Assembly (NCBI GenBank): GCA_000993685.1
Contig: LBWP01000003.1
Location: 6,196-70,195 of the forward strand
Length of the DNA: 64,000 nucleotides
Direction: 5' to 3'
Origin: Candidatus Woesebacteria bacterium GW2011_GWA1_39_21
GTDB taxonomy: Bacteria; Patescibacteriota; Microgenomatia; UBA8517
A model generated the notes under the pieces. It was not told the origin of the DNA. It saw only the letters and a program-made list of their open reading frames with translations, and did no database searches. Shown here in pieces: positions 2,040 to 62,106 of this stretch. The position numbers were made by a program, and so were the translations under genes. Position 1 is the stretch's first letter; each line of letters starts with the position of its first letter.

Positions 2040-2382
2040 ATTTCCTTACCGGTTAATTTTTACCGAGATAGCCCTATATATTTTGGTTGCATTGGCCTGG
2101 TATATCGCCAAAGAGTCACTAAATTTGAGTATCGAAAACGAATATTTAATTGATGGGATTTTCATTTTTGGATTTATCGGGATGGTTATAAGAAAAAATG
2201 CGCACCATCGTTTTTACTGGTATGCTTTTTCTGCAATTGTTTTATCCGCAATATCCGATACTTTAGGCGCCACTACGATTACTTTTTATTTTAGTAGTCT
2301 TGCAATTTCATTTCTAATTCTAGGCGTTTTAAATACACTCCTTTTTAATAAGAATTTTCAGAAAGCTAATGACCAGTCATAA
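2017..2382 (+). CDS. Small integral membrane protein with three predicted TM helices, function unknown.
   Basis: 121 aa, very hydrophobic (IALYILVALAWYIA, GIFIFGFIGMVI, FSAIVLSAISDTLG). A good SD, agaaGGAGtaataATG, precedes the start. It overlaps its neighbours by a few codons, which suggests an operon. Confidence 0.45.
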   Translation: MSSKKSDKFPYRLIFTEIALYILVALAWYIAKESLNLSIENEYLIDGIFIFGFIGMVIRKNAHHRFYWYAFSAIVLSAISDTLGATTITFYFSSLAISFLILGVLNTLLFNKNFQKANDQS

Positions 2383-5104
2383 AAAAGTTGCAATATTTGC
2401 GCTTCTTACCGCGTTGATCTTCAAATTTTGGATTTTTACAAGCAAGTCAAATCTTGGTTCCGATATTAGTTATCGTTTTTTGCCAATCGTTAATGGTATC
2501 TATCTGCCTTTTACGTGGAATAATGTTCAAACCGGAGACGGAATGGGCGTGTATGCCGTAAATACTTTGTGGTCATACCCTTCGGAGCTATTTTATGAGT
2601 CATTGACGAGATTTGGGCTGCCGTATTGGTTTCAAATTAAATATTTGATGCTTTTGCCGGCAATTCTAATTTCCACCTTAGGTTTCATCAAACTTTCAAA
2701 ATTTTTTAAAGGTGATTGGCTCGTTTCGTCTGTTTTATACGTCTTAAACACTTACTTTATTTTGCTTTTAGACGGTTCGCAAATGAACATCGTTTTGGCG
2801 TACAGTGTTTTCCCACTCACATTCTACTTTTTTTTAAGTGTTTGCGAAAAGTTGAGTGTTTACTTACTTTTAAAATTCGTCTTCAGTGTTTGGTTGATCG
2901 GCACTTTCGATTTGAGAATAGTCTGGATATTGGCATTCGTCGTGTTAATAAAATTTATTTTTGATTTTCTCACCGTTAAGGGTGGTGGTCAAAGGTTTTG
3001 CCTTTTCAAAAACTATATTGTCATTGGCTTAACGACTACAGTTTTTCTGGTTCTACTTAATCTGTATTGGATTTTACCGGCTAAATTTTCCGAAGGTGTG
3101 CATCTTCCTGCAGGGTACGACTCCGCCCAACAGGTAACCAATTTGAGTTTTTCAACGATCACACATGCTCTTTATTTATTTCAACCGCATTGGTATATCA
3201 ATAGCTTTGGCAAGGTAACAAACCCCGTGTGGTATTTTGCCATTGTTCCAATTTTCGCATTTGTTCCGGTTCTTCTTTCCAGAAAAAAGCAGTATTTGTT
3301 TTTAATCTCAATAGCATTTGTCGGGATATTTTTGACAAAAGGATCACAACCGCCTTTGGGGGAAGTATACCTGCAACTTTTCCAGAAAGTGCCGGGGTTT
3401 AACTTGTTTCGAGATCCGAGCAAGTTTTTTTTCTTAATTGCTTTCTCCTACTCGATATTGGTGGGGATTACTTCAAAATTAATTTCCAAAAAATCATATC
3501 TGCCTTCGCTCGTTTTCATCATCTATTTGGTATTTCTCATGAACCCCGTTTTGCGCGGCCAAATGACGGGATCTTTTTCTCCGGTCCAAAACGAAGATAA
3601 ATACTGGTCTTTTGCGCAATTGTTAAGTAGTCAAACCGATTTTTTTAGAACTTTCTCAATCCCGGTCAAGTTGCCGCTAGGTTATGTCTCATTTACGCAC
3701 CCATCAACCGAGGCATTTTCGATCGCAGAAAAAAGACCGTTCGAAATAGGCACTGTGGGAACATATGAGAAATTTAATTTCTTACGAGAAGCTCCTTTTA
3801 TGGGAGAGCTTATAAATGTTGCCGGAATAAAATATCTTATTTATCCTTTTCCCGACGCGCGGCGTAAAGCTTTGAAACAGGACAACCTCGATTACTACAA
3901 CACTTTCTTGCAACAGTTGACAAATTTACCATGGATAGAAAAGAAAATTTCAGATTCACCCGTTGCTGTGTTACAGACAAAAAAACACCAAGACCATTTT
4001 TTTATTACTCCTAGAACCTTTTATGTTGTTGGTTCGGATAGGATTTATTCGGACTTAGTTAATGTTACCGGATTTGATTTGTCCAAATTGGCGTTGGTCT
4101 TTGCGGAAGAACGGCCAGGTGTAGTTGGTAAGCCTGACAATCTCCCTATTACAAATATTCTTCTCTACCACAAAAGTGAGACTGATTTGGCAGCAAGTTT
4201 TATTGATAAGGCCCTCTATATTTTTCCTGCCCAAAATCTTAAGCGTGACCCAACTGATGTTAGCCCGTGGTGGAAGCGGGAGGCGAATGATTTTTTATCG
4301 ATGAGAAATTTTCTGCAAACCAAATATCAAATTGACAATCAAGATTTTGATTATCAGGGTGGCTATGCAGTAGCGGAAGGCGACCAACAGCTTGTCGTGC
4401 AAGATTTGAAGTTTAAATCTGGGAATTTATTGTTGGTACGCGTGATGAGAAGCTCTAAAAGCGGGAGCATCCAGTTTTGGCAGGATAATTCAAAGATCGG
4501 CGAAGTTGATACGCTTGATCAAAATCCTGAACAAGTAGAAATTAAGCTCACTGGTTATAACGATGTGCCAGATCGAATTTTCACTTATGATTCGGCCGCC
4601 TTTGACTGGCATCTTGTTGGAAAATTAAATTCGCAGCATCCCCTAAATGTCAAAACTTCCGGTGAGATTAATATTGTCAATGCGCTTGCCTCTGTATCCG
4701 AGCAAGATTGGAACCGGGTAAATAGGTTAACTGGCCCATACAACATTCTCGACTGGGACAAACTTTCAGACAAGGACAAACAACGATTAGTCGAAGTTTC
4801 AAGTGATGCAAAAGTAACCTATACCCGTCTTTCACCGACGGAATATAAAGTTAACATTTCAGGTTTGAAATCTCCGATAACACTTGCGTTTTCTGAGAGC
4901 TTTGATTCTTTTTGGGAAGCAAACGGTGTGGGTTCTTATCCCTTGTATAGTTTTATAAACGGTTTCAGAATCGATCAAGATGGGACGTATGACATCTACT
5001 TTTCTCCACAGAAATACGTTTTCGTACCTTTGGCAATTTCGGCTGCTTCATTGGTTATTATAGTCTTAATCTTGATTTACCCTACACTTCGAAAAAAGTT
5101 ATAA
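2369..5104 (+). CDS. YfhO-like (GT-C fold) polytopic membrane protein, a putative membrane glycosyltransferase.
   Basis: 911 aa. The N-terminal ~400 aa contain at least 10 hydrophobic helices. A large extracytoplasmic domain follows, and the C-terminus (ITLAFSESFDSFWEANGVGSYPLYSFINGFRIDQDGTYDIYF) ends in a TM anchor. This architecture matches YfhO/AftD-type proteins, from memory of the family. Confidence 0.5.
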   Translation: MTSHKKVAIFALLTALIFKFWIFTSKSNLGSDISYRFLPIVNGIYLPFTWNNVQTGDGMGVYAVNTLWSYPSELFYESLTRFGLPYWFQIKYLMLLPAILISTLGFIKLSKFFKGDWLVSSVLYVLNTYFILLLDGSQMNIVLAYSVFPLTFYFFLSVCEKLSVYLLLKFVFSVWLIGTFDLRIVWILAFVVLIKFIFDFLTVKGGGQRFCLFKNYIVIGLTTTVFLVLLNLYWILPAKFSEGVHLPAGYDSAQQVTNLSFSTITHALYLFQPHWYINSFGKVTNPVWYFAIVPIFAFVPVLLSRKKQYLFLISIAFVGIFLTKGSQPPLGEVYLQLFQKVPGFNLFRDPSKFFFLIAFSYSILVGITSKLISKKSYLPSLVFIIYLVFLMNPVLRGQMTGSFSPVQNEDKYWSFAQLLSSQTDFFRTFSIPVKLPLGYVSFTHPSTEAFSIAEKRPFEIGTVGTYEKFNFLREAPFMGELINVAGIKYLIYPFPDARRKALKQDNLDYYNTFLQQLTNLPWIEKKISDSPVAVLQTKKHQDHFFITPRTFYVVGSDRIYSDLVNVTGFDLSKLALVFAEERPGVVGKPDNLPITNILLYHKSETDLAASFIDKALYIFPAQNLKRDPTDVSPWWKREANDFLSMRNFLQTKYQIDNQDFDYQGGYAVAEGDQQLVVQDLKFKSGNLLLVRVMRSSKSGSIQFWQDNSKIGEVDTLDQNPEQVEIKLTGYNDVPDRIFTYDSAAFDWHLVGKLNSQHPLNVKTSGEINIVNALASVSEQDWNRVNRLTGPYNILDWDKLSDKDKQRLVEVSSDAKVTYTRLSPTEYKVNISGLKSPITLAFSESFDSFWEANGVGSYPLYSFINGFRIDQDGTYDIYFSPQKYVFVPLAISAASLVIIVLILIYPTLRKKL

Positions 5105-5255
5105 CATCCTCCACTATCTCTGCTTAAGGTTTTTTACAAAATCACTTTAAGGGAGGATGACATATAAGCAAAGCTTAACTCTGTTTGCACATTTTCAGCA
5201 TTCGATTCATCCCTAATCTAAAACTGAGGGTTTTCTCGAATGCTGTTATAATTAA
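5104..5255 (+). repeat. Copy 3 of a modular, structured repeat element (three copies in this window), a candidate sRNA or miniature mobile element.
   Basis: acatcctcc at 5104-5112 pairs with ggaggatgacat at 5152-5163. Next comes the module ataagcaaagcttaactctgtttgcacattttcag, then cattcgattcat, then a weak hairpin ccctaatctaaaactgaggg, then the conserved tail ttttctcgaatgctgttataa. It aligns module by module with 47338-47450 (same strand) and the reverse complement of 58972-59155. Confidence 0.6.
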
Positions 5256-6549
5256 ATTTGTGAGAAGGCTCTTGAAACTCAACTTTTTTTCTGTTGTAAA
5301 AACCAATACTTTTCGTCAATCAACTTTGACATTTACGGCAACCGTAATAAACGGAATTTTGGGAATGGTTTTTTACATTCTTCTTGCACGCGAGCTTGGC
5401 GTGTTTGATTTCGGCTTATTTTCATTGTCAATTACGGTCTTGGCGGTGGTTGCCGATATCGGAAATCTGGGGATTAATACTGGGATTGTAAATTTTGTAT
5501 CAAAGTATCTTAAATCCGACTACCACAGGTCGATGGGGTTTCTTAAGTTAGGGCTCTTGTCAAAAATTTTGATTGCACTCGTAGTTATTATTTTTGGTTT
5601 TTTATTGTCGCCATTTTTGTCAAAACAAGTTTTTAATAAACCGGAACTTGTTTTTGGACTGCGATTGGTTTTCATAGGTGTTGGTACAACTTGGCTGTTT
5701 TCATTTACAACTTCATACTACCAAGCCTCGCAAAAATTTATTAGCTGGGGGTTAATTCAGATCTTCACCAACTCATTAAGACTTGCGGTTGTTGTCTATT
5801 TGACGGCTAGTTTACAACTTAATTTAACAACAGCGATTATCAGCTATATCGTTGCGCCTTTGCTGGGATTTTTGTTGAGTTTTGTTAACATCTCAGTTGA
5901 CTTTGTCAAAGAAAAAATTAATTCAGAAGTTCGTGGTGAGTTTTTTAATTACAACAAGTGGGTTGCTATCTCGAGTGGAATTGCTGCTTTTTCATCACGC
6001 ACGGACATATTTGTGTTGGGAAGATTGGTTACAGCTTCCGGTATCGGGATTTATTCGGCAGCTAATCAGCTGGTATCAGTTGTTCCGCAACTAATCGGCG
6101 CAATGGGGACAGTTGTTGCCCCAAAATATTCTTCGTTCACCAATGACCAACAAATGCTAACTTATTTTAAAAAACTTTTACTGATGGTTGTCGCCGTGGC
6201 GTCTTTTATTCTGTTATGCACGCCTGGAGTGAGGTTAATAATTAATCAGTTTTTCGGAGTTGAGTATAGGAATTCGTTTCCAATTTTTATGGTTCTATTG
6301 GTCGCAATGTTATTCTTTCTGATTTCGGTCCCGTTCCATAATGCCATAATCTACTACTACTCATACCCGAAGCTATTTTCTTATCTGTCAGTGATCAATT
6401 TCATAGTAATTGCTTCACTTTCGGTGTTTTTAACACTGAATTTTGGTTACCAGTCAACAGCATATGCGATAATGGCTGGAAACATTGTCAATTTTATAGT
6501 TCCGGCTTTATGGTTTTGGCGAAGGGTGAGTGGTGTTAAAAATAAATAA
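5185..6549 (+). CDS. Wzx-like polysaccharide biosynthesis protein (MOP-superfamily oligosaccharide flippase). The true start is probably downstream, at GTG 5260 or ATG 5365.
   Basis: 12-14 predicted TM helices. The N-terminal region FYILLARELGVFDFGLFSLSITVLAVVADIGNLGINTGIVNFVSKY is typical of Wzx/RfbX flippases. The first ~25 codons (from a TTG) are the translated tail of the repeat element (…FSNAVIIKF = ttctcgaatgctgttataa), so they are not believed. Confidence 0.55.
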   Translation: MHIFSIRFIPNLKLRVFSNAVIIKFVRRLLKLNFFSVVKTNTFRQSTLTFTATVINGILGMVFYILLARELGVFDFGLFSLSITVLAVVADIGNLGINTGIVNFVSKYLKSDYHRSMGFLKLGLLSKILIALVVIIFGFLLSPFLSKQVFNKPELVFGLRLVFIGVGTTWLFSFTTSYYQASQKFISWGLIQIFTNSLRLAVVVYLTASLQLNLTTAIISYIVAPLLGFLLSFVNISVDFVKEKINSEVRGEFFNYNKWVAISSGIAAFSSRTDIFVLGRLVTASGIGIYSAANQLVSVVPQLIGAMGTVVAPKYSSFTNDQQMLTYFKKLLLMVVAVASFILLCTPGVRLIINQFFGVEYRNSFPIFMVLLVAMLFFLISVPFHNAIIYYYSYPKLFSYLSVINFIVIASLSVFLTLNFGYQSTAYAIMAGNIVNFIVPALWFWRRVSGVKNK

Positions 6550-6558
6550 GTTGTAAAA

Positions 6559-7404
6559 ATGCAAATTTGGGGACATGCATTGGTTAAGAATGAAGATCGC
6601 TACCTTTGGTATGCAATAAGTAGCGTGATTAAGTTTGTTGACAAGGTATTGCTTTGGGACACAGGAAGCTCCGATGATACTCTCAAGATTGTCGAAAGTC
6701 TAAAACAAAGATACCCGTCTAAAATCAAATTTAGGGAAATAGGTGAGGTAAATCCAGAACAATTTACAGTTGTCAGGCAAAAGATGTTAGAAGAAAGTGC
6801 TTGTGATTGGGTAGTGATTGTCGATGGAGATGAGGTTTGGTGGGAAGACAAAATAAAAGAAACAACTGATTTGATTCATACAAGGGGCCAAGGACTTGAT
6901 TCACTTGTTTCACAATATTATAACGTTATTGGTGATATCTATCACTTTCAGGATGAACTTGCAGGCAGGTACAATATTGATGGAAAAGTTGGTAATTTTA
7001 ATATCCGTGCTTTTAACAGAAAAATTAAGGGCCTGAAGTTTAAAAAGCCACACGGGCAACAAGGACTTTTTGATTTTGCCGACCGGCTTTTACAGGAGCG
7101 TGAGCAAAGCAAACGTTTCTGGGTGATGGGATATTCCTATCTTCATTTTACGAATATGCCCAGGTCACGTGCGCGTTCAAGCGATTTAGCTGTCCCAAAA
7201 AGAGCCTTTAAGTTGAAGTATGAATTAGGAAACAGTTTCCCGCTTGATTTCTACTACCCGGAAGTTTTCTTTGAAGATCGACCTGAGTATTTGAAATCGG
7301 TTTGGACCAATATGGATTTGAAGTACCAGGCGCGTTCATTTGTTGAGACACCCTTTAAAAAAGTAAAAAGACAACACTTTTCTTCAGAAAAATCAGGATA
7401 TTAA
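6559..7404 (+). CDS. GT-A fold glycosyltransferase, family 2-like (Glyco_tranf_2_4-like).
   Basis: The N-terminus HALVKNEDRYLWYAISSVIKFVDKVLLWDTGSSDDT and a later VIVDGDE (DxD-like) match GT2-like nucleotide-sugar transferases. It sits within the glycosyltransferase island. Confidence 0.45.
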   Translation: MQIWGHALVKNEDRYLWYAISSVIKFVDKVLLWDTGSSDDTLKIVESLKQRYPSKIKFREIGEVNPEQFTVVRQKMLEESACDWVVIVDGDEVWWEDKIKETTDLIHTRGQGLDSLVSQYYNVIGDIYHFQDELAGRYNIDGKVGNFNIRAFNRKIKGLKFKKPHGQQGLFDFADRLLQEREQSKRFWVMGYSYLHFTNMPRSRARSSDLAVPKRAFKLKYELGNSFPLDFYYPEVFFEDRPEYLKSVWTNMDLKYQARSFVETPFKKVKRQHFSSEKSGY

Positions 7405-7413
7405 GTTTTTTAG

Positions 7414-8988
7414 ATGATGGATAAAATTATTAAATTTAAGACGCACTACATTGTCTTTCTGCTTTTTGTTATTGCAATTGTTCCCAGGATTTACCGTTTT
7501 TCGCAACAACCGATTTACACTGACGAAATAACATGGATGGTCAGAGCGAAAGAAACATTCCTTGCGTTACGAACCTTTAATCGGCAGCATATAAAAAACT
7601 ATTTTCAAAGTAGTAACGCTTGGTGGGTTAATGACAACGACACTGAGGCAATAGCGCTTCCTTTGACTGCTGCGACTGGACCGTTTATCGCATATCTGGG
7701 AATTGGTCAAAGCGTTTTAACTAGAAATGTTGCGAGAGATTTTGTCGTTGCCCGTTTCCCGCTTATTGTGATTAATTCGTTTACGGTTGTGATTGTTTAT
7801 TTATTAACCAGAAAAATTACAGATAAAAAAACGGCACTTTTGACGGGAGTTTTGTACGCGTTGGATCCCGTGGCTATCAGTTACAGTCGTTTAATCATTA
7901 ATGATGGGCTTTTGACATTGTTTATCCTTTTTGGCATATATAGCTTTTTTTATATCGAGAACGTTAAGACGTCAATTATTTTGTCATCACTCTCAATCTG
8001 CTTTGCTTTTCTGACAAAGCCGATTGGACTACTTCCTCTGATAATATTTTTCTTTTACGCAATCTTTTCCGACAAAAAAATGAAGAATTTTATTAAGTTT
8101 ACTCTGATCGGATTAGTAAGTTTTGTCCTGATTCACTTTTTTTGGCCGGAAGCTTGGTTTCATCCATTCACTTCAGTGTTTGAATATCTGACGCGTCAGT
8201 TTAAGCTTATAGAAAATTCTACGGAAATGTTTTTTGCGGGAAGTGTTTCGCACCAGGTTCCCTTTTACTATTACTTTATTTTGATTTGTTTGCGTGTACC
8301 TTCTTACATTTTCTTCGGCCTTTTAGCCTCTTTGTATTTCTTTTTTACAAAAACTGGACGGAAAAAATTGATTTTGATAAATTTAAAAACCCTTTCGCAA
8401 ATAATTTATGTTTTTGTCTTTTTCTTATTTTTGTCGTTTGCCTCAAAAAAATCCGGAGTCAGGTATTTGCTTCCCATCTGGCCATATATTTACATTGGAG
8501 CATGTTGTGCGATTTTTCGTTTTGTCAAAAAACTACCGGAAATATTCGGAGGATTCGTTTTGCTTGCAATTATCTCGCTTTCTCTTTTTAATATTTACAA
8601 ATATGAACCAAATTATGATTACTACTACAACGAAATATTCGGTGGACCGGCGGTTGCCAAGAATTATGTGTCAACATCACTTTGTTATGGTGCAAAAGAG
8701 TCCGCCGATACATTGAAAAAGTGTTTTCCACAGGTTACGCAGATTTCTTATGTTGGTTGTGCAAGATCAACTTTACCATACTATTTTTCAGGAATTATAA
8801 ATTCACAGATAGACCCCAATCAACCCGTTGTAATCGAAGCCTATTATGAACAAATGAAATATGTGACAACGAAAACAGCAAAGCTAGTTAAAAATAAAGA
8901 TGTGATAAATGTTACAAAAAATGGTGTCGATCTGGCAAAGATCTACCTTAATTTGAAGCAGTTTCCCAAAAGTTGCTCTCTGAACTGA
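7414..8988 (+). CDS. GT-C fold membrane glycosyltransferase, ArnT/PMT-like (polyprenyl-phosphate-sugar dependent, GT39/GT83-like).
   Basis: 524 aa, polytopic. The first extracytoplasmic loop carries PIYTDEITWMVRAKE, the DE motif of the PMT/ArnT family. About 11 further TM helices follow. Confidence 0.55.
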   Translation: MMDKIIKFKTHYIVFLLFVIAIVPRIYRFSQQPIYTDEITWMVRAKETFLALRTFNRQHIKNYFQSSNAWWVNDNDTEAIALPLTAATGPFIAYLGIGQSVLTRNVARDFVVARFPLIVINSFTVVIVYLLTRKITDKKTALLTGVLYALDPVAISYSRLIINDGLLTLFILFGIYSFFYIENVKTSIILSSLSICFAFLTKPIGLLPLIIFFFYAIFSDKKMKNFIKFTLIGLVSFVLIHFFWPEAWFHPFTSVFEYLTRQFKLIENSTEMFFAGSVSHQVPFYYYFILICLRVPSYIFFGLLASLYFFFTKTGRKKLILINLKTLSQIIYVFVFFLFLSFASKKSGVRYLLPIWPYIYIGACCAIFRFVKKLPEIFGGFVLLAIISLSLFNIYKYEPNYDYYYNEIFGGPAVAKNYVSTSLCYGAKESADTLKKCFPQVTQISYVGCARSTLPYYFSGIINSQIDPNQPVVIEAYYEQMKYVTTKTAKLVKNKDVINVTKNGVDLAKIYLNLKQFPKSCSLN

Positions 8989-39043: not shown

Positions 39044-40332
39044 ACATTAGAATTCAAGGTGGGCAAAAGTTAAACGGTGTAATTAAGCCTTCAGGTAGTA
39101 AAAACTCTGCTGTTTCAATCATTCCCTCCACATTGATGTTTGATACCCCAGTGACTTTGATGAACGTTCCAGAGATAACGGACGTAAATAAACTAATTGC
39201 CATCATGCAGAAACTGGGAAGCAAAATTGATTGGCAAAAAAAAGAAGGCGTGATGAAAATTGATAACCGAAAAATTTCTTTCGAAAAAGTTACGCGTGAA
39301 GATTGGAATGCAATGCGTGGAACATCACTTTTATGGGGTCCAATGCTTGCGCGATTTGGGAAAGTTGATTTTGGGGGATTACCTGGAGGTTGTACTCTTG
39401 GCTTTAGGACGCTTTCGCCACACTATAAAGCTTTTGAGGATTTGGGAGTGGAAGTCAAAGAGGGGGAAAATGGAATAAGAATGGATGCAGCTCGCGCCAA
39501 AGCTGGGAGTATTTGGCTTCGTGAAATGAGTCCGACTGCAACGGAGAACGCGATTATGCTAGCGCTGTCCTTGAAAGGAAATACGCAAATCTACGGTGCA
39601 GCATCAGAGCCACAAGTTCAAGATTTATGCATGTTTTTGAATAATGCCGGTGCTCATATTTCTGGTGTTAGTTCGAGTATCTTGAATATTGAAGGCGGGA
39701 ATACTTTGAGAAAAGTGGAATATGCAATGTTCAGCGATCATTACGAGATAGCTACTTTTTTGGCTATGGCGGCAATTACGGGTGGTCGTATTGAAGTCCA
39801 AAATTCGCAACCAGAACTTTTTGAGCATATCAACTATATTTTTTCCCGTTTCGGGGTTGTGGTTGATTATCACAAAACTACAGCGGTGGTTGAAGCCAAT
39901 CAGAAGATAAGGGTCATACCTGAAGATAGTGGAAGAAATTACTTAAGCATCAAGGCGCAGCCATGGCCATCGTTACCAGTTGATCTTCTTCCAATATATA
40001 TACCCATCTCTCTAAAAGCAAAAAGTGGTGTGACGCTTTTTCACAATTGGATGTACGATTCAGGGCTTTTCTGGACAAGCGAATTAACAAAACTGGGTGC
40101 AAATATTATCATGTGTGATCCGCACAGAATAATTACAATTGCCGGGGAGAAGCTAAGAGGAGCAACTATCGAGGCACCATATATTATCCGAGCTGTAGTT
40201 TCAATGGTTTTAGCATGTATGATTGCCGAGGGAGAATCAACAATTTTAAACGCGGATGCTCTCTATCGTGGCCATCCATATTTTGCCGAGAACCTTCAGA
40301 AACTGGGAGCAAAAATTGAAGAAGTGAAATGA
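39040..40332 (+). CDS. murA: UDP-N-acetylglucosamine 1-carboxyvinyltransferase MurA.
   Basis: MNIRIQGGQKLNGVIKPSGSKNSAVSIIP. 430 aa, EPSP-synthase fold length. Confidence 0.85.
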   Translation: MNIRIQGGQKLNGVIKPSGSKNSAVSIIPSTLMFDTPVTLMNVPEITDVNKLIAIMQKLGSKIDWQKKEGVMKIDNRKISFEKVTREDWNAMRGTSLLWGPMLARFGKVDFGGLPGGCTLGFRTLSPHYKAFEDLGVEVKEGENGIRMDAARAKAGSIWLREMSPTATENAIMLALSLKGNTQIYGAASEPQVQDLCMFLNNAGAHISGVSSSILNIEGGNTLRKVEYAMFSDHYEIATFLAMAAITGGRIEVQNSQPELFEHINYIFSRFGVVVDYHKTTAVVEANQKIRVIPEDSGRNYLSIKAQPWPSLPVDLLPIYIPISLKAKSGVTLFHNWMYDSGLFWTSELTKLGANIIMCDPHRIITIAGEKLRGATIEAPYIIRAVVSMVLACMIAEGESTILNADALYRGHPYFAENLQKLGAKIEEVK

Positions 40333-42578
40333 GAGCGCAAGACATCGTTGGGTTACTTCGTGAAGCATCTTTGTTGAAGAAATCAAACGTTATCCAAAAT
40401 GTAAATATTGTTGGAATTTCTGACGACTCCAGAAAAATCGCGAGAGGATTTTTGTTTGTTGCTGTAAAAGGCCTGAGGACAGACGGAAACAAGTATCTTG
40501 AAGATGCTATAAAAAGTGGAGCATCGACAATTGTTAGCGAACGCCCTTTCAAAAAAGCAGTTGTCGGTGAAAGGGTAAACTACATTCAGGTGCAAGACTC
40601 TAGAAAGGCTCTTTCACTTATTGCTGCGCTTTGGTATGAAAACCCGGCTGAAAAACTTAAAATTATTGGACTAACCGGGACTAAAGGAAAGACGACTGTT
40701 GCTCATCTTCTTCATCATATTTTTAACAAAGTAAAAATCGGGGTAGGTATGATTTCGACCGTGAATGCCGTAATTGCCAACGAAGTATCTGATACCGGAT
40801 TGCATGTAACCAATCCCGAACCGCTTCTTTTCCAATCGTTTCTAAAAAAGATGGTAGATAAAGGGCTAAAGTATGCCGTGTGTGAAATAACCTCACATGG
40901 GTTGGATCAGGAAAGGGTCTATGGGATTAATTACGAGGTGGGAGTTTTGACAAATATTACGCCAGAGCATCTGGATTACCACAAAACTTTCGCTAATTAC
41001 CGCCGTTCAAAACTGAAACTTTTTGAGAGGTCGAAAAAGTTAGTTGTTAATCGTGACGATCCGTCGTACAGAGTTATAAGACAAATGTTTAAGAACGACA
41101 AAAAGATGGCAAGCTACTCACTAAATGCAGATGCAGACATTGTTGGAAAAATACATCGGATGACAGAAGACTATATGGATTATGGAGTAGTCAAAGATGC
41201 GAAAGTGTACAGGGGAAGAATTAAGCTTTTGGGAAAATATAATTTATACAATGTTTTAGCTGCGGTTTGTGTTGCACAGCTGGAAGGAATAGGATTGAAA
41301 GCGTCAATGCGTGCGTTAGAGGATTTTCAACCTCCGGAAGGGCGCTTGGAGAAAGTGAATAATGAATTGGGAATTAATATTTATATTGATTTTGCGCATA
41401 CTCCAGATTCGCTTGAAAACTTACTACTTCTTTTAAAGAAAATGACAAAAAAACGACTAATCTGTGTTTTTGGTTGTGCGGGTGAAAGGGATAAAAGGAA
41501 GCGTTTTCAAATGGGTAAAATTTCAGGACGCTTGGCGGATTTAAGTATTATTACGGCGGAAGACCCCAGAACCGAGGATGTAAATGGAATATGTAGTCAG
41601 ATAAAAAGAGGAGCGTTGAAAGCGTTGGCAAAAGACTACTTTTCGAAAGATAATGCTGAAAGGAAATATTTGATTGTCCCCGATAGATATGAAGCAATAT
41701 ATTACTCGATTAAAAGTGTTGCTCAAACCGGCGATACGATTGTTATTTGTGGAAAGGGTCATGAAAACAGCATGTGTTATGGGAAAATTGAACATTTATG
41801 GAAGGATAGAATAGCGATTGAGAATGTGTTAAAAGCTGAGTACGGAAAGAATGCGATTATCTTAGCTGCCGGTAAAGGAAAGCGTCTAAACTCAGAAGCC
41901 CCAAAAGTGATTCTCGACATTGCGGAAAAACCAATAGTTAGTTATTGTGTGACTAATCTAAGGAGATCCGGTTTTTCAAACATTACTTTGGTGGTTGGAT
42001 ATCGAGCTTCAGATGTAATTAAAGAAATTGGCCCGACTGTAAATTATGCATTCCAAAGGACCGCTTTGGGTACTGGACATGCTGCTTGGCAAGGAATGAA
42101 AAATCTGAAAAGTGAAAGAACTATTTTAGTCGTTAACGGCGATGACAGTGCTTTCTATAAACCAGAAACTTTTGCCGCGGTTTTCCAAAGCCATCTTGAA
42201 TCCAAGGCAAAGTTGACCTTTACGAGTACGATTTTGGAAAATCCAACAGGAATTGGGAGATTGGTACGAGATATTAACGGAACACTGCTTCGTATTGTTG
42301 AGGAGAAAATCGCAAGCGAATCTGAAAAGAAAATTAAAGAATGCAATATTGGAATGTATGTATTTGATCGGGGATGGTTTTTGAAAAATATAAAGAAGGT
42401 GAAGAAAGGTACGGTTGGTGAGTATTATATTACTGACTTGATTGAAATTGCCGTAAGGCAGAATGATTTTATTAATGTTTTTCGTCTGAACGATTCGAGG
42501 CAGTGGTGTGGCATAAATACATGGGATGAACTTGAGCATGCAAATAAGAAGATGAATGAGGAAATTAATAAAACTTAG
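40329..42578 (+). CDS. murE: MurE (UDP-MurNAc-L-Ala-D-Glu:diamino-acid ligase) fused to a C-terminal GlmU-like sugar-1-phosphate nucleotidyltransferase domain.
   Basis: Residues 1-~495 carry IIGLTGTKGKTTVAHLL, DFAHTPDSLENLL and other Mur ligase motifs. Residues ~500-749 carry AIILAAGKGKRLNSEAPKVILDIAEKPIV…ALGTGHAAWQG…LVVNGDDSAF, which matches the GlmU N-terminal uridyltransferase domain (LAAGKGTRM…KVL…GTGHA…GD). Confidence 0.75.
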   Translation: MRAQDIVGLLREASLLKKSNVIQNVNIVGISDDSRKIARGFLFVAVKGLRTDGNKYLEDAIKSGASTIVSERPFKKAVVGERVNYIQVQDSRKALSLIAALWYENPAEKLKIIGLTGTKGKTTVAHLLHHIFNKVKIGVGMISTVNAVIANEVSDTGLHVTNPEPLLFQSFLKKMVDKGLKYAVCEITSHGLDQERVYGINYEVGVLTNITPEHLDYHKTFANYRRSKLKLFERSKKLVVNRDDPSYRVIRQMFKNDKKMASYSLNADADIVGKIHRMTEDYMDYGVVKDAKVYRGRIKLLGKYNLYNVLAAVCVAQLEGIGLKASMRALEDFQPPEGRLEKVNNELGINIYIDFAHTPDSLENLLLLLKKMTKKRLICVFGCAGERDKRKRFQMGKISGRLADLSIITAEDPRTEDVNGICSQIKRGALKALAKDYFSKDNAERKYLIVPDRYEAIYYSIKSVAQTGDTIVICGKGHENSMCYGKIEHLWKDRIAIENVLKAEYGKNAIILAAGKGKRLNSEAPKVILDIAEKPIVSYCVTNLRRSGFSNITLVVGYRASDVIKEIGPTVNYAFQRTALGTGHAAWQGMKNLKSERTILVVNGDDSAFYKPETFAAVFQSHLESKAKLTFTSTILENPTGIGRLVRDINGTLLRIVEEKIASESEKKIKECNIGMYVFDRGWFLKNIKKVKKGTVGEYYITDLIEIAVRQNDFINVFRLNDSRQWCGINTWDELEHANKKMNEEINKT

Positions 42579-46509: not shown

Positions 46510-47460
46510 TTACCACTTACCTTTTTCTACGAAATTTCTAAACAGTTGTATCACATCTTTAGTGACGTGTCCGACTTTTCCGTTACCTATCTTTTTCTTA
46601 TCAACTTTCACAACTGGCATGACCTCTTTGTTGCTTGCAGTTAAAAAGACCTCATCGGCAGAAAAGATGTCGGATAATTTTATCGGTCTTTTTATGACCG
46701 GATAAATTATATGACAAAGACTGATGACCAGGTCTCTTGTAATACCGAAAAGAATCTTATTGTCGCTCGTGTAGATTTGCTTATTTTTGACGATAAAGAC
46801 ATTACTTGTAGTTGCCTCTGTAATATTACCTGATTTTTCGTCGTAATAAACTGCTTCAATACATCCGCTTTTTTTCGCTAAATTTAACGCCCTAATTGCG
46901 ACTGAATATTCGAGAGATTTGATTTCAGGGAAAGGACGGGAATATTTGTACGAGAGGGCTTTTGCACCATTTTCAAAAAGCGCATTTGGGTAAAAGTGAC
47001 GGTCCTCGACGATAACAATAATTGAGGCTTTAGCAGAAGGTTCGGTCGATGAATTTCCAACACCGCCGGTTATTAGAATACGAATTGTTTTTTCTTTTCC
47101 GTTTATGTTTTTTGAAAGCGTGTTGTTGACGATGCTTTCAATTTCTCTTTTTGTCTTTCCAATCGTTAAACCCAATATCTTTGCAGAATTAAAAAGTCGG
47201 TCAATGTGCCGGTCGATAAGAAATGGCCGATTATTATAAGTGACAAGAAAATCAAAAACGCCAAAGCCGCGAAGCAGTCCGATATCTAAAACACTAATTA
47301 CCGCCTTACTTTCAGGCAAATAATTTCCATTTATATAATGACATCCTCCCCGCCTTAAAAGGCGGGGTTTCTCCAAGGAGGATGACATATCAGAGTTCAA
47401 TTCATCCCCACCCTGAAGGGTGGGGTTTTCTTGAACGCTGTTATAAATTGGCACACTCAT
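46510..47460 (-). CDS. Class IV (fold type IV) aminotransferase, D-amino-acid or branched-chain aminotransferase-like. The N-terminus is uncertain: the first ~40 codons are encoded by the repeat element.
   Basis: INGNYLPESKAVISVLDIGLLRGFGVFDFLVTY aligns with the N-terminus of Dat/IlvE enzymes (xNGxxxxxxeAxIsxxDxGxxxGDGVFE). There is no canonical start codon right before this block. The ATGs at 47460 and 47388 both lie inside the repeat copy. Confidence 0.6.
   Translation of the reverse strand: MSVPIYNSVQENPTLQGGDELNSDMSSSLEKPRLLRRGGCHYINGNYLPESKAVISVLDIGLLRGFGVFDFLVTYNNRPFLIDRHIDRLFNSAKILGLTIGKTKREIESIVNNTLSKNINGKEKTIRILITGGVGNSSTEPSAKASIIVIVEDRHFYPNALFENGAKALSYKYSRPFPEIKSLEYSVAIRALNLAKKSGCIEAVYYDEKSGNITEATTSNVFIVKNKQIYTSDNKILFGITRDLVISLCHIIYPVIKRPIKLSDIFSADEVFLTASNKEVMPVVKVDKKKIGNGKVGHVTKDVIQLFRNFVEKGKW
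47338..47450 (+). repeat. Copy 1 of the modular structured repeat element. This is the compact version.
   Basis: atgacatcctcc-CCGCCTTaaaAGGCGGGG-tttctccaa-ggaggatgacat, then atcagagttcaattcat, then ccccaccctgaagggtggggttttctt, then gaacgctgttataaattg. It shares a 14-mer with copy 3 (ggaggatgacatat) and most of its length with the reverse complement of 58972-59155. Confidence 0.6.
47406..47432 (+). terminator. Intrinsic-terminator-like hairpin inside repeat copy 1.
   Basis: CCCCACCC-tgaa-GGGTGGGG followed by TTTTCTT. No + strand gene ends nearby, so it is more likely the 3' end of the element's own transcript, or a bidirectional insulator. Confidence 0.35.
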
Positions 47461-47572
47461 TTAACATGTTCTAACAACTACAGATTATTATATAGGTAGA
47501 TTAAGTTAAAATAACAATCAATCTATCCTCCTAAGTCCGGCTGCTTCTGCAGCCTTTAATATATTTGCACCC

Positions 47573-57732: not shown

Positions 57733-58896
57733 ATGGCATTAGTAAAACCGGATTCAGGTAGAATCGCAAAAATAAAAGTTATCGGAGTTGGTGGAGGAGG
57801 GGGAAATGCTGTTAGTTCGATGGTCGAGAGCGGCAACATCAGCGGTGTTGAATTCATTGCTGTTAATACCGATGCGCAGGTACTTTTAGCAAATAAAGCT
57901 TCAACGAAAATTCAGATAGGCGAAAAAATAACTAAGGGTCTAGGTGTTGGTGGTAACCCGGAAATCGGGACGCAGGCGGCGGAGGAATCTCAGGAGAAAC
58001 TCAAAGAGCTCATGATTGATTCCGACATGGTGTTTGTTACAGCTGGAATGGGAGGGGGTACGGGAACGGGAGCGGCGCCAACAATCGCCCGCTTAGCCAA
58101 AGAGTCTGGTGCCTTGACTGTAGCGGTTGTTACGCGTCCTTTTCATTTTGAGGGTACAAGACGCGCTGTTGTTGCGGATGACGGTGTTGACAAGTTAAGA
58201 AACGAGGTCGATACATTAATCGTTATTCCTAACCAGAGATTAATGGATGTAATTGATCGGAAGATGACACTTGTTGACGCCTTCAGAATTGTTGATTCTG
58301 TTTTGGCACAAGCTGTTGGCGGAATTTCAGAGATAATTACGGTTCCCGGACTTGTTAACGTCGATTTTGCCGATGTGAAGACTATTATGAAAGAGGCGGG
58401 CTCCGCGCTTTTGGGAATCGGGACGGGCGTTGGTGAGAATCGGGCGCAAATGGCGGCAAGGGCGGCAATTGCCTCTCCACTGCTTGATCTGTCAATTGAA
58501 GGTGCAACTGGGGTACTTTTTAATATCACGGGTGGACCCGATCTCACAATGTTTGAGGTTGATGAGGCGGCAAGAGTAATATCATCTTCAGCAGAACCCG
58601 ACGCTAATATTATCTTTGGAGCGGTGATTAAAAATGATATGGCCGACCAAGTAAGAATTACAGTTGTCGCGACCGGTTTTGATGAAGCAAAATCGAGACT
58701 TGCGAAAATGAGTCAGAAAACTGAGCCGCAATTTCAGGGCGTTGTCAGCGAAAGAGGAGAAGAGCAAAAAGGTGAAGAGATAACTCAGACAGATAGCCGC
58801 TCGTTTGAAGAAAGTGTTGAGGCTGATGATGAAATTGATGAGTTCGGTAAAAAGTTTGAGATTCCTGCATTTTTAAGAAGGATAAAGCAAGGATGA
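57733..58896 (+). CDS. ftsZ: Cell division GTPase FtsZ.
   Basis: [14 protein letters not shown], the tubulin signature [10 protein letters not shown], and NTDAQ. An acidic C-terminal tail ends in [15 protein letters not shown]. Confidence 0.9.
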
Positions 58897-58971: not shown

Positions 58972-59155
58972 ACCGTCATTTTATAACAACGTTCAAGAAA
59001 ACCCCACCCTTCAGGGTGGGGATGAACCGCCTGCTTAGCTGCGCAAGCTAGCGGGCAGGATTGAACTCTGAAAATGCGTAAGCGGAGTCAAGCTTTGCTT
59101 TTATGTCATCCTCCTTGGGGACACCCCACCTATTAAGGCGGGGAGGATGTCATTA
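58972..59155 (-). repeat. Copy 2 of the modular structured repeat element. This is the expanded version, with two inserted hairpin modules.
   Basis: Read on the - strand: atgacatcctcc-CCGCCTTaataGGTGGGG-tgtccccaa-ggaggatgacat, aaaagcaaagcttgactccgcttacgcattttcag, agttcaat, [cctgcccgctagcttgcgcagctaagcaggcgg], ttcat, ccccaccctgaagggtggggttttctt, gaacgttgttataaaatg. The aaagcaaagctt… module is shared with copy 3 and absent from copy 1. Confidence 0.6.
58995..59021 (-). terminator. Intrinsic-terminator-like hairpin inside repeat copy 2 (- strand).
   Basis: On the - strand, CCCCACCC-tgaa-GGGTGGGG followed by TTTTCTT. It is identical to the hairpin in copy 1. Confidence 0.35.
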
Positions 59156-59205: not shown

Positions 59206-62106
59206 ATGATGAGCAATAAACCTCGTTTTGAAGATATTTCGACAAATTGCAATTTTGTTGAAGAAGAAAAAAAATTGATTAAACATTGGTACCAAGACGG
59301 TGTCGTAAAAAAATATTTAGATAAAAACAAATCTGCGAAAGAGTTTTTTTCCTTTTTAGATGGTCCAATTACGGCAAATAACCCGATGGGTGTCCATCAT
59401 GCTTGGGGTAGAACTTACAAAGACCTTTTTCAGAGATACAAAAATATGAAGGGATTCAAGCAACGATTTCAAAATGGCTTTGACTGCCAGGGTCTTTGGG
59501 TTGAGGTGGAAGTTGAAAAAGAACTTGGTTTTAAAAGTAAAAAGGATATCGATAAGTACGGGGTGGCGAATTTCATCAATAAATGTAAAAAGCGAGTCAA
59601 TAAATATTCAGCCATGCAAACACAACAAACAATCAGGTTGGGTAATTTTATGGATTGGGACAATTCCTACTACACAATGAGTGATGACAACAATTACATG
59701 ATTTGGCATTTTCTCAAAGAATGTAAGCAAAAGAATTTAATCTACAAAGGGATAGACGTTGTTCCCTGGTGTTACCGTTGCGAAACCGCAATTTCAGAAC
59801 ATGAGATACTTACCGAAGACTATAAAGACGTCGAACACACCTCTATCTACTTTCGACTGCCGATAACTGGTCGGAAAAATGAATTTTTACTGGTCTGGAC
59901 AACTACACCATGGACTATCCCTGCAAATATCGCAGTTTCAGTTGATGGAGAAAATAATTATTCATTGGTTGATTTTGAAGGTAAATATTACTGGGTGATG
60001 AATAAACTTGTTCAGAAAATATTTATTAGAGACTACAAGATTTTAAAAACAGTTAAGGGTACTGATTTGGATGGGTTTGCTTACACATCTGCGTTTGACG
60101 ATCTTCAGTCAAATAAAGCACTTTCTAAAGATAAACTGTTTCATACTGTAGTTATAACAGACTCAATGATTATGCCTATTACCGAAGAAGAAGGAACAGG
60201 GCTTGTGCATACCTCAACGGGAACCGGAGCTGAGGATCATAGGCTTGGTAAGAAGATCGGTCTTCCGATTATGCCTGCAATTAAAGACAATGCGGATTAT
60301 ATTGAAGGTTTTGGCGATCTTTCTGGAAAAAATGCAAAGCAAAACCCTGAATTAATTTTTGATATTTTGAAAACAAAGAAAGATGGTCTGTTTTTGTTTA
60401 AGTTAGAAAATTACCGTCATAGATACCCAGCGTGTTGGCGCTGTAAAAGTGAACTGGTGTGGAAATTAACCGACGAATGGTATATCGCCATCGAACCAGT
60501 CAGGGAAAAGATGAAAAAAAACGCGAAGGCGATTAGTTGGATCCCCGAGTTTGGTTTGAAAAGGGAATTGGACTGGCTGTCGAACATGCACGACTGGTTG
60601 ATTTCGAAAAAAAATCGCTATTGGGGTTTAGCTTTGCCAATTTGGGAATGTGATTGCGGTAATTTTGAGGTTGTCGGTGGCTTTGACGAACTGAGGCAAA
60701 AAGCTGTAGAAGGCTGGAACGTGTTTGAAGGGCACACTCCACACAAGCCTTTTATCGATAAAGTTAAGATCAAATGTGGCAAGTGTGGAAAAACTATCAG
60801 TAGGATTTCCGATGTTGGTAATCCATGGTTGGACGCGGGTATAGTTCCATTCTCGACAATCTCTTCTAACAATCGATCAAAACCACTTTATATTACAGAT
60901 AAGGAGGAATTCCACCGTTGGTTTCCAGCAGACTTCATTACTGAAAGTTTTCCTGGTCAATTCAAAAATTGGTTTTACTCGGTTCTCGCAATGAGCACAA
61001 TCTTAGAGAACAAAATTCCCTACAAAACAGTGTTTGGTTTTGCCACTTTGGTTGCCGAAGACGGTAGGCCGATGCATAAAAGTTGGGGGAACTCGATTGA
61101 ATTTAATGATGGAGCCGAAAAAATTGGCGCCGATGTTATGCGCTGGATGTTTGTTTGTGCCAACCCGGCGGATAATTTACTTTTTGGTTATAAAAATGCC
61201 GATGAAGTTAGAAGAAGGTTTTATTTGAAGTTGTGGAACAGCTATAACTTTTTTGTGACATATGCCAACTTAGATCTCTATGCTCCGACCAAAAGTGTTG
61301 ATTTCAAAACTGGTAGTTTAACAATTCTTGACAAGTGGATACTGACTAGGCTTAAGGAAACGTTGACTGGTGTTGATACGATGTTGGCGGAATACAACAG
61401 CGCGTCGGCAGCGTTGAAAATAGAAGATTTTGTTAACGACTTCTCGAATTGGTATATTAGAAGATCTCGAAGTCGGGTTGGTATCGCTGCCTCGGATCTT
61501 AATGATAAAAAAACTTTTTATGACGTTTCATATACAATCCTTCTGACACTGTCGAAAATGCTTGCGCCGCTTTTACCTTTTTTATCAGAACTTATTTACA
61601 CGAATTTGACAAAAAACGAAAGCGTCCACTTAGAAGACTGGCCGGATTTTCACTATGAGATCGACATTTTTATGACAGAGCAGATGTCTGTTGTCCGCAA
61701 AGCTGCCGAGGCAATCCACTCAGAAAGAAAGAAAAAAAATATTGCAATCAGTCAACCGCTTTTGGGAGCAGAGATTTACGGACCTTCCCAAAAACCTGAT
61801 AGCCGATATCTACAGATTTTGCTTGAAGAGACTAATTTGCTCAGCCTTAACTGGGTAAAAAAGGGTGCGGTTTACCAGGTTACCCTCAACGAAAAAATTA
61901 CTCCCGAGTTGGAGGAGCAGGCAAAGACAAGAAAACTTGTTCGAAAGATCCAAAACGCGCGAAAAGTTCTTGGCGTGAAGCTTAATGAAAAGGTCGAGGT
62001 TATTTCCGATTGGCTGCCGAGCGACAAAAAACTTCTTGCTTTTATCAAAGAGAAAACCCTTGCCACCGAATTAGTCTCTGGCGATGAGTTCAAAGTTGAA
62101 AAGTAA
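59206..62106 (+). CDS. ileS: Isoleucine--tRNA ligase.
   Basis: 966 aa class I synthetase. The editing-domain motif LLVWTTTPWTIPANIAVSV (the IleS WTTTPWTLP signature), CWRCKSELVWKLTDEWYI, a KMSKS-region variant PMHKSWGN, and Zn-knuckle CGKCGK. It sits downstream of ftsZ, as in many Gram-positive dcw regions. Confidence 0.7.
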   Translation: MMSNKPRFEDISTNCNFVEEEKKLIKHWYQDGVVKKYLDKNKSAKEFFSFLDGPITANNPMGVHHAWGRTYKDLFQRYKNMKGFKQRFQNGFDCQGLWVEVEVEKELGFKSKKDIDKYGVANFINKCKKRVNKYSAMQTQQTIRLGNFMDWDNSYYTMSDDNNYMIWHFLKECKQKNLIYKGIDVVPWCYRCETAISEHEILTEDYKDVEHTSIYFRLPITGRKNEFLLVWTTTPWTIPANIAVSVDGENNYSLVDFEGKYYWVMNKLVQKIFIRDYKILKTVKGTDLDGFAYTSAFDDLQSNKALSKDKLFHTVVITDSMIMPITEEEGTGLVHTSTGTGAEDHRLGKKIGLPIMPAIKDNADYIEGFGDLSGKNAKQNPELIFDILKTKKDGLFLFKLENYRHRYPACWRCKSELVWKLTDEWYIAIEPVREKMKKNAKAISWIPEFGLKRELDWLSNMHDWLISKKNRYWGLALPIWECDCGNFEVVGGFDELRQKAVEGWNVFEGHTPHKPFIDKVKIKCGKCGKTISRISDVGNPWLDAGIVPFSTISSNNRSKPLYITDKEEFHRWFPADFITESFPGQFKNWFYSVLAMSTILENKIPYKTVFGFATLVAEDGRPMHKSWGNSIEFNDGAEKIGADVMRWMFVCANPADNLLFGYKNADEVRRRFYLKLWNSYNFFVTYANLDLYAPTKSVDFKTGSLTILDKWILTRLKETLTGVDTMLAEYNSASAALKIEDFVNDFSNWYIRRSRSRVGIAASDLNDKKTFYDVSYTILLTLSKMLAPLLPFLSELIYTNLTKNESVHLEDWPDFHYEIDIFMTEQMSVVRKAAEAIHSERKKKNIAISQPLLGAEIYGPSQKPDSRYLQILLEETNLLSLNWVKKGAVYQVTLNEKITPELEEQAKTRKLVRKIQNARKVLGVKLNEKVEVISDWLPSDKKLLAFIKEKTLATELVSGDEFKVEK

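Follow-up and report, generated by a model that had tools for sequence, protein, structure and literature searches.

The window analyzed here is a 64,000-nt stretch (positions 6,196 to 70,195 of contig LBWP01000003.1, Candidatus Woesebacteria bacterium GW2011_GWA1_39_21) of a densely coding, 38% G+C contig from a groundwater bacterium of the candidate phyla radiation (CPR), and it carries three copies of the hairpin-rich repeat element that is the subject of this report. The isoleucyl-tRNA synthetase (IleRS) of the window is identical on contigs from Rifle and other aquifers, and its relatives are Woesebacteria/Microgenomates. Three homologous segments had been described in an earlier annotation made from the letters of the window (the sequence-only reading), and these were borne out by alignment and by blastn-short, with E values of 1e-16 to 1e-19 for the blocks shared by copies B and C. 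The boundaries were refined to 5101-5247 (copy A), 47338-47442 (copy B) and 58985-59153 (copy C), with a conserved flank, ATAA, after each. Exactly three copies lie in the window, as no fourth was returned by blastn-short or by the covariance model described below. Copy B is canonical, with a length of 105 nt, its putative transposon top strand on the minus strand and a covariance model score of 122.9 bits. It occupies the spacer between two divergent genes assigned by Pfam, one for a class IV aminotransferase (minus strand, starting at ~47331) and one for an alpha/beta hydrolase (plus strand, 47815). Copy C (top strand plus, 169 nt, 55.8 bits) contains two nested extra modules and is located between ftsZ (57733-58896, plus) and ileS (59206-62106, plus; Pfam), an arrangement that recurs on four other groundwater contigs. 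Copy A (top strand minus, 147 nt) is a more decayed relative of the other two. Its first hairpin is degenerate and its second weak, it carries a 30-nt module at 5165-5194, its 5' end reads ATAACAT rather than the usual ATGACAT, and only the part at 5157-5252 was scored by the covariance model (45.2 bits). The stop codon TAA (5102-5104) of the upstream 911-aa gene falls in the first bases of copy A; this ORF (open reading frame; 2369-5104, plus) had no Pfam match at E <= 0.001.

The inverted repeat ACATCCTCC...GGAGGATGACAT is common to the window copies. A first scan, covering one genome per species with the pattern ACATCCTCC-N20-50-GGAGGATGACATA, returned 60 loci (designated by L numbers), which, with the sole exception of a chance match in an archaeal ORF, came from metagenome-assembled genomes (MAGs) of Patescibacteria, mostly Woesebacteria. 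These data gave 62 distinct copies in 23 Patescibacteria genomes, at least 21 of them in one assembly of ~1.03 Mb. The loci from "binchicken" MAGs (L012, L020, L029, L030, L057 and others) are labeled "uncultured Gammaproteobacteria", a label that is probably wrong; the mur genes of the window have syntenic counterparts in L029 (43-49% identity), and NCBI assigns a 98%-identical Dtd to "Candidatus Microgenomates". A covariance model was built from 50 canonical copies, and ~10 more diverged copies were picked up in the same loci. A second scan, of groundwater metagenome contigs, used the other half of the element alone as its pattern and yielded at least 120 contigs with at least 85 unique full copies. 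The sequence-only reading had named exactly three copies without covariation as the outcome that would speak against it; well over a hundred copies and strong covariation were found. No description of a CPR repeat or miniature inverted-repeat transposable element (MITE) of this kind was found in the literature, and the family appears to be undescribed in CPR bacteria, while elements of its kind, miniature elements of the IS200/IS605 type (IS, insertion sequence), are already known.

On the strand used by the sequence-only reading (here the consensus strand), the consensus of the ~108-nt core is ATGACATCCTCC-[hp1]-TTTCCCTCTAAA-GGAGGATGACATATCAGCGTTCAATTCATC-[hp2]-TTTTCTTGAATGCTGTT|ATAAT. Four helices were recognized, namely, P1 (CATCCTCC/GGAGGATG) around hairpin hp1, P3 (CAGCGTTCAA/TTGAATGCTG) around hairpin hp2, and the two hairpins themselves. 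In the model-based alignment, 97.2% of the cells were paired, compared to 82% in shuffles and 35-46% with slid partners. Double-sided changes were observed in 21 of 35 pairs, a number reached by none of 500 shuffles, and in 6/6 pairs of hp1 and 7/8 pairs of hp2. Since the pairing exceeded that of both the shuffled and the slid controls, it was concluded that the hairpins are under selection, and the sequence-only reading was right to propose this. Helix P1 had been fixed by the first search pattern, but the second, independent set was free of that selection; there, compensatory ACGTCC/GGACG was found in 18/18 copies and ACATTC/GAATG in others among the matches listed. The CCTCC/GGAGG pairing that had been taken for Shine-Dalgarno/anti-Shine-Dalgarno mimicry is helix P1, in which CCTTC/GAAGG is also tolerated, and the mimicry was discarded. 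The stem bases of hp1 and hp2 are often alike within one copy and unlike between copies (L013, L035 and L058, with CCTCGCA in both hairpins; L007 and L054, with CCACG in both; L015 and L064), which might reflect gene conversion, alternative pairing or the demands of a binding protein common to both. Deletion derivatives were also seen, comprising single-hairpin mini-elements of ~55 nt, with the 5' end fused to the 3' tail, and solo second halves lacking hp1 and P1 (L008 ~1340-1397, minus; L037 ~7810-7867, minus; L078, L081, L101, L132, L136, L137 and L183).

Mobility was deduced from comparisons of copies and sites. The 113-nt copies at two loci of one MAG, L012 and L020, are identical, and the sequences around them are unrelated. 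L022, which is syntenic with window positions 37.3-46.5 kb, has a copy between the orthologues of the gene at 40329-42578 and of murC; in the window, the space between these two genes is only ~20 nt. In L029, the murC product contains a 36-residue insert, and the closest MurC among 5.8 billion proteins, 87% identical over the aligned residues, is without exactly those residues. The corresponding DNA pair is 85% identical and reads GCAAAATTTTGT|AAAATT at the empty site and GCAAAATTTTAT[108 bp]AAAATC at the filled site, a net insertion of 108 bp after TT(A/G)T. Empty sites in related genomes, a check proposed in the sequence-only reading, do occur. This insert-free MurC relative (L066 3001-5295) is fused to MurB in a protein of 764 aa. 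A dtd product of 181 aa was found only in L012 and in a 98%-identical twin, all other relatives having 145 aa. In L048, one copy lies directly after the TCAT end of another (...GCTGTT|ATGACAT...). No empty-site allele of copy B was found in the Joint Genome Institute (JGI) metagenomes. The family is thus almost certainly mobile, non-autonomous DNA, neither a fixed gene nor a fixed regulatory site. The suggestion of a MITE-like element was supported to this extent, as the family is dispersed, mobile and non-autonomous, with module-level indels and selected hairpins.

The ends were best described on the top strand, the reverse of the consensus strand, where the anatomy is host-TTAT | AACAGCATTCAAG-AAAA-[hairpin]-GATGAATTGAACGCTGATATGTCATCCTCCTTTAGAGG-GAAA-[hairpin]-AGGATGTCAT | host. 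The left hairpin is preceded at 17 nt by TTAT, and the right hairpin is followed at 10 nt by the TCAT end, the latter distance holding in most of the 85 metagenome copies among the matches listed. In copy B, the host tetranucleotide at 47443-47446 (minus strand; TTAT on the top strand, ATAA on the plus strand) is the putative left cleavage site, 17 nt 5' of the hairpin foot. Its hp2 (CCCCACCCTGAAGGGTGGGG, 47406-47425) would be the left-end subterminal palindrome, the TTTT that follows it on the plus strand corresponding to the guide AAAA on the top strand. Its hp1 (CCCCGCCTTAAAAGGCGGGG, 47348-47367) would be the right-end subterminal palindrome, with its foot 10 nt from the end ...TCAT and with GAAA 5' of the foot on the top strand. 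The corresponding target TTAT of copy C lies at 58981-58984 on the plus strand. Among genome copies with a T-type guide, 49 of 54 have the flank ATAA (TTAT on the top strand), as do 77 of the 85 metagenome copies among the matches listed. For genome and metagenome matches listed, taken together, a TTAT flank accompanies the guide AAxA in 126 of 139 copies.

This arrangement was compared to that of IS608, in which the distance from the left hairpin foot to the left cleavage site, TTAC (C_L), is 19 nt in the 5' direction and that from the right foot to the right cleavage site, TCAA (C_R), is 10 nt in the 3' direction (PMC3201880, PMC5934647). The IS608 guides AAAG and GAAT, located 5' of the hairpin feet, read the cleavage sites by the pairs -1/G4, -2/G3 (a noncanonical A·A), -3/G1 and -4/G2 (PMC3201880, PMC5934647). 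The pairs AAAA/TTAT and GAAA/TCAT satisfy this scheme at both ends of the present element, and the third guide position, equivalent to the noncanonical A·A of IS608, is hypervariable (TTTT, TGTT, TCTT and TATT on the consensus strand). The strongest single result for the mechanism is that guide and host flank covary. Of six copies with the left guide GAAA (TTTCC on the consensus strand), five are flanked by ATGA (TCAT on the top strand); with AAxA, this flank is found in 2 of 54 (Fisher p = 2e-5; adding the metagenome copies among the matches listed lowers p to 1.5e-6). The ATG of the ATGA flank opens an ORF of at least 104 codons in 6 of 7 copies, with ordinary N termini, e.g., MKKKIIIYTIIGVLVLSA; the flank is therefore host DNA and not part of the element.

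Based on these end features, the family is probably a miniature transposon of the IS200/IS605 type from Woesebacteria/Microgenomates, resembling the palindrome-associated transposable elements (PATEs). In the proposed mechanism, a Y1 (HUH) transposase supplied in trans would bind both subterminal hairpins. One cut would fall on the 3' side of the host TTAT, located 17 nt 5' of the left hairpin, and the other on the 3' side of the TCAT that ends the element, located 10 nt 3' of the right hairpin. Each site would be recognized by base pairing with the tetranucleotide 5' of the hairpin foot, AAAA reading TTAT and GAAA reading TCAT, and the excised single strand, presumably the top strand, would be rejoined 3' of another TTAT without target duplication. 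A circle or tandem junction in this peel-and-paste scheme would read ...GGATGTCAT|AACAGC...

Several observations weigh against this assignment. No transposase was detected in 1.33 Mb of loci by two crude searches, one by motif and one by tblastn with an IS200 TnpA sequence, and no full-length autonomous IS with the ends of the element was found among 189 loci. The hairpin sequences vary among copies of one genome, which would be unusual if a single TnpA recognized all of them. The five retargeted copies all come from a single genome, and copies with ATAA (TTAT) at the right end show the matching guide change in only 2 of 5 cases. The G·T pairs of P3 favor the consensus strand (40, versus 0 A·C) rather than the presumed top strand. 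Orientation between co-directional genes shows no clear bias (~16 sense versus 10 antisense); in the window, the top strand coincides with the G-rich strand in 1 of 3 copies. The resemblance to the archaeal RNA family HgcC, discussed below, is subthreshold (26.6-33.7 versus 50 bits for ten copies), making the element a nonmember by Rfam's criterion. Finally, the likeness of TTAT and TCAT leaves an ambiguity of 3-4 nt in the junctions of the filled/empty pairs, and these junctions would also fit a 2-4-bp duplication (AT, TAA or ATAA).

The last point bears on a classical MITE moved by a DDE transposase, e.g., of the IS630/Tc1 or IS5/PIF type, which would insert at TTATAA-like sites with a 2-4-bp duplication (TA, TTA or TTAT). 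Such a MITE would account for a small, multicopy element that seeks AT-rich targets, for the TAA/ATAA at both junctions of the filled murC and dtd sites, and for the TTAT(G/A)A seen at either junction of nearly all copies. It would also be expected to have inverted terminal repeats and a duplicated target. No consistent terminal inverted repeats were found, the best being 7/8 over TTATGACA/TGTTATAA with the putative duplication included, and no consistent target-site duplication was found, the candidate bases differing between the two sides of single copies (TC versus CT, TT versus CT). Furthermore, the internal base 17 nt from the end that covaries with the host flank is not predicted by a DDE mechanism, and the asymmetric 17-nt/10-nt hairpin geometry matches IS608. 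A DDE-type MITE was therefore considered unlikely.

Five of the 62 copies lie inside conserved genes, in-frame and free of stop codons, with insert lengths that are all multiples of three. Four of these are antisense, in murC (L029), dtd (L012), a P-type ATPase gene (L050) and a GT4 glycosyltransferase gene (L051), and one is sense, in the gene for a DUF4153 protein (L008). Since the intragenic copies are multiples of three and free of stops, they are deduced to be translated. The protein inserts are 34-36 residues in MurC, Dtd and the P-type ATPase, and the Pfam domains continue across the inserts in these three proteins and in the DUF4153 protein. An intron or otherwise spliced element was ruled out, since the five copies are multiples of three and stop-free in the host frame. 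The bias extends to the family as a whole, with a core length that is a multiple of three in 66 of 85 metagenome copies among the matches listed (p = 7e-17). With the 108-nt mode removed, it still applied to 23 of 42 among the matches listed (p = 0.005), and the proportion in the other set was 36/62. Module-bearing copies also keep multiples of three (126, 129, 132, 135, 141, 147, 153, 162 and 186 nt). The bias would fit lineage-level selection for frame-preserving insertions, and it would allow insertions into genes to survive as protein inserts.

The self-contained small RNA (sRNA) unit proposed in the sequence-only reading was abandoned, given that copies occur in both orientations in every gene context and that five are in-frame inside genes. 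The TATAAT-like box that had been read as its promoter is the element's own end, and the sequence 5' of the element is unconserved beyond two T's. In the window, a scan found no sigma-70-type site upstream of the copies. The terminal hairpin with its T-run was called terminator-like by the scan in B (hp2, on the plus strand) and C but is weak and uncalled in A. The hairpins of B and C follow no co-oriented gene and that of A does; termination is therefore not the reason for copies B and C. In other genomes, ~16 copies are placed such that they could terminate an upstream gene. Two further candidates were rejected. A small ORF starting at the conserved ATG has frames that are inconsistent between copies (MTSSPL* versus a long read-through), and a Shine-Dalgarno/anti-Shine-Dalgarno riboregulator of the downstream gene is inconsistent in its distance and orientation to genes.

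The whole window had no match to an RNA family at the gathering thresholds of Rfam, and no known ribozyme was reported for the element by Rfam. In the locus L023, a glmS ribozyme at 7070-7279 (minus strand; 54.8 bits, gathering score 37) adjoins an element copy at 7293-7405. In a permissive Rfam search, the reverse (minus) strand of copy B matched HgcC (RF00062) with 33.4 bits against a gathering score of 50, and nine copies in eight other loci all matched HgcC on the top strand with 26.6-33.7 bits. Copy B also weakly matched the sot0042 terminal hairpin (E ~0.07-0.1 for a 301-base stretch). The tested copies align to the whole 130-nt HgcC model on the same strand, with the motifs hairpin-GAUGA..UGAAC and ...AACCCCGCC-UUUA-GGCGGGGAGGAnGUCA in common and with a 10-nt tail after the last hairpin. 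The HgcC consensus GAAC-hairpin-10 nt-TCAG obeys the same guide/site rule as GAAA/TCAT in the element. The two differ in the middle part, where the element falls ~24 nt short of the model, and in that HgcC is archaeal and filed as an RNA gene of unknown function. The sense overlapping transcripts (sotRNAs) arise at the 3' end of tnpB genes of the IS1341 type, which belongs to the IS200/IS605 family, and both HgcC and PATE-derived RNA carry a motif like that at the right end (RE) of the IS in the IS1341-type sotRNAs (Gomes-Filho et al., PMC4615843).

An sRNA gene family was also weighed in a broader form, either as a self-contained unit on the consensus strand or, with mobility as a secondary trait, as a transcript of the opposite strand that resembles HgcC or omega RNA. 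The strong covariation of the helices, the terminator scores of hp2 plus T-run in B and C, and the preference of the P3 G·T pairs for the consensus strand are consistent with such a family, as is the finding that overexpression of PATE-derived RNA altered growth in Halobacterium (PMC4615843). Nevertheless, no conserved promoter was found 5' of the element on either strand, and the copies occur in all orientations and contexts, including translated within ORFs. Orthologous sites differ in the presence or absence of the element, and P3, the helix that encloses the "terminator", requires bases 3' of the T-run. The bias toward multiples of three represents a constraint at the coding level rather than the RNA level. 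For the consensus strand in particular, the only resemblance to an RNA family, the subthreshold one to HgcC, is on the opposite strand. An sRNA family was consequently judged very unlikely. An extension of the preferred IS200/IS605-type assignment, which we regard as decidedly improbable as a whole, is that the family constitutes an active, guide-programmed single-strand transposon system of CPR bacteria. In this system, one-base guide changes would have moved the target from TTAT (-10 boxes, stop-codon contexts) to TCAT (start codons), multiple-of-three lengths would have been selected because essential genes can then tolerate the element as a protein insert, and an HgcC-like top-strand transcript might also serve as a compact guide RNA, with its guide derived from the flank, for a TnpB-type nuclease acting in trans.

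The positions of the copies relative to gene starts were also informative. In ~25 of the 62 copies, a same-strand start codon, tRNA gene or rpmH gene follows the TATAAT tail at 5-14 nt. In copy A, the flank ATAAT (5248-5252, plus) and the last element bases together make up TGTTATAAT. This extended -10 box is followed, 7 nt further on, by the GTG (5260) of a Wzx-type flippase gene (PF01943). Since TTAT is the reverse complement of the ATAA in TATAAT, many copies presumably sit in the -10 boxes of leaderless genes. Insertion in a -10 box would leave ATAAT in the flank, and the last bases of the element would rebuild the extended -10 TGTTATAAT. The proximity of the ~25 copies and of copy A to gene starts was accordingly ascribed to insertion in -10 boxes, and the TCAT-seeking subfamily (guide GAAA) would land directly 5' of start codons. 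TATAAT-N6-8-ATG is itself common at window genes without a nearby element. The gene starts at 9049, 10564, 22489, 28697, 31419, 33219, 59206 and 63211 lie 5-8 nt after a TATAAT/TAAAAT-like hexamer with no Shine-Dalgarno sequence between, a spacing that suggests widespread leaderless mRNAs in the CPR genome of the window.

The same positions could be explained by an immobile host regulatory cassette, consisting of an insulator or terminator plus an extended -10 promoter for leaderless genes and fixed by selection. The ~25 of 62 copies near starts, the perfect extended -10 box TGnTATAAT and the frequency of leaderless-type spacing in the window's genome are in keeping with a cassette. Its positions, however, are not conserved between genomes, and five copies are intragenic. 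No gene adjoins the "promoter" end of copies B and C, the latter pointing into the 3' end of ftsZ, and comparisons with empty sites indicate that the ATAA(T) of the box is host flank. Native promoters free of the element also exist. As the primary explanation, the cassette is largely refuted and highly improbable, and it survives only as a side effect of insertion in -10 boxes.

The remaining features of the window copies concern their modules. The details given in the sequence-only reading hold once its copies 1, 2 and 3 are read as B (47338), C (58972-59155) and A (5104), respectively. GC hairpins are present in B and C, with the first hairpin degenerate in A, and the conserved tail is present in the window copies. 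The optional module accounts for ~30 nt extra in A (5165-5194) and C (59072-59101; AAAGCAAAGCTTGACTCCGCTTACGCATTT) and is absent from B. This module, AAGCAAAGCTTnnC...CATTT, is found also in L143, and a related ~30-nt module occurs at another position in L063, inside the hp2 loop. The extra palindromic insert is a nested 33-nt sequence in C (CCTGCCCGCTAGCTTGCGCAGCTAAGCAGGCGG, 59027-59059). Related palindromic modules, CC(K)GCC...GGCAGG, of 21-33 nt recur inside other copies at the same two hot spots, after ...GACATA (L038, L048, L053 and L059) and after GTTCAA (L055), and they behave like independent mini-insertions. At 47522-47560, ~80 nt downstream of copy B, the window reads ATCCTCC-TAAGTCC-GGCTGCTTCTGCAGCC-TTTAATA, which combines a sequence like the element start with a hairpin called terminator-like and may, judging from these letters, be the remnant of another copy.

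The genomes of CPR bacteria (Patescibacteria) are ~1 Mb, dense and regarded as streamlined, yet the copy number of this element reaches dozens per genome (3 in 64 kb and at least 21 in 1.03 Mb). With its in-frame inserts in essential genes, the family is a second case of "coding palindromes", previously best known from Rickettsia, here with a target and a plausible mechanism, and the covariation of guide and target is a natural counterpart of the IS608 retargeting experiments. The element also ties the orphan Rfam family HgcC to ends of the IS200/IS605 type. Its insertion into -10 boxes and at start codons is relevant to leaderless gene expression in these organisms, and the family should be masked in CPR genomes before promoters, terminators, sRNAs or "lineage-specific protein insertions" are annotated.

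Among known repeats, the Correia elements of Neisseria have 26-bp inverted repeats and a TA duplication, and BOX of pneumococcus is built from boxA, boxB and boxC modules. Both are like the present element in having many copies near genes, optional modules, stable hairpins and -10 boxes made or restored at the junction; we know of no guide-based tetranucleotide targeting for either. The Rickettsia palindromic elements (RPEs) reportedly lie in-frame inside genes, where they add a peptide segment and keep the ORF. They are palindromic repeats of ~100-150 bp in a small, reduced genome, both intergenic and in-frame in housekeeping genes, and the likeness seen here is one of behavior; the present element differs in its specific target and in its IS200/IS605-like end geometry. 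To our knowledge, the mechanism of RPE mobility is not known. The RPEs are also named in a review (PMC10969869). PATEs and other derivatives of the IS200/IS605 family, of which IS608 is the paradigm and the REP/REPIN sequences, moved by RAYT transposases, are relatives, share with the element a short, noncoding structure made of fused left and right ends, each with a subterminal hairpin. They also share the lack of terminal inverted repeats, apparent insertion 3' of a specific tetranucleotide, a target that follows the guide, and an asymmetric cleavage geometry, 17 + 10 nt here compared to 19 + 10 nt in IS608. The present element differs from them in that the search of the loci revealed neither a cognate TnpA or TnpB nor a full-length IS and in that its hairpins vary widely within one genome and are each enclosed by an extra long-range helix, P1 or P3, that covaries. 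It differs further in its CPR host, in its target, TTAT or TCAT, and in its multiple-of-three lengths, with some copies in-frame in genes.

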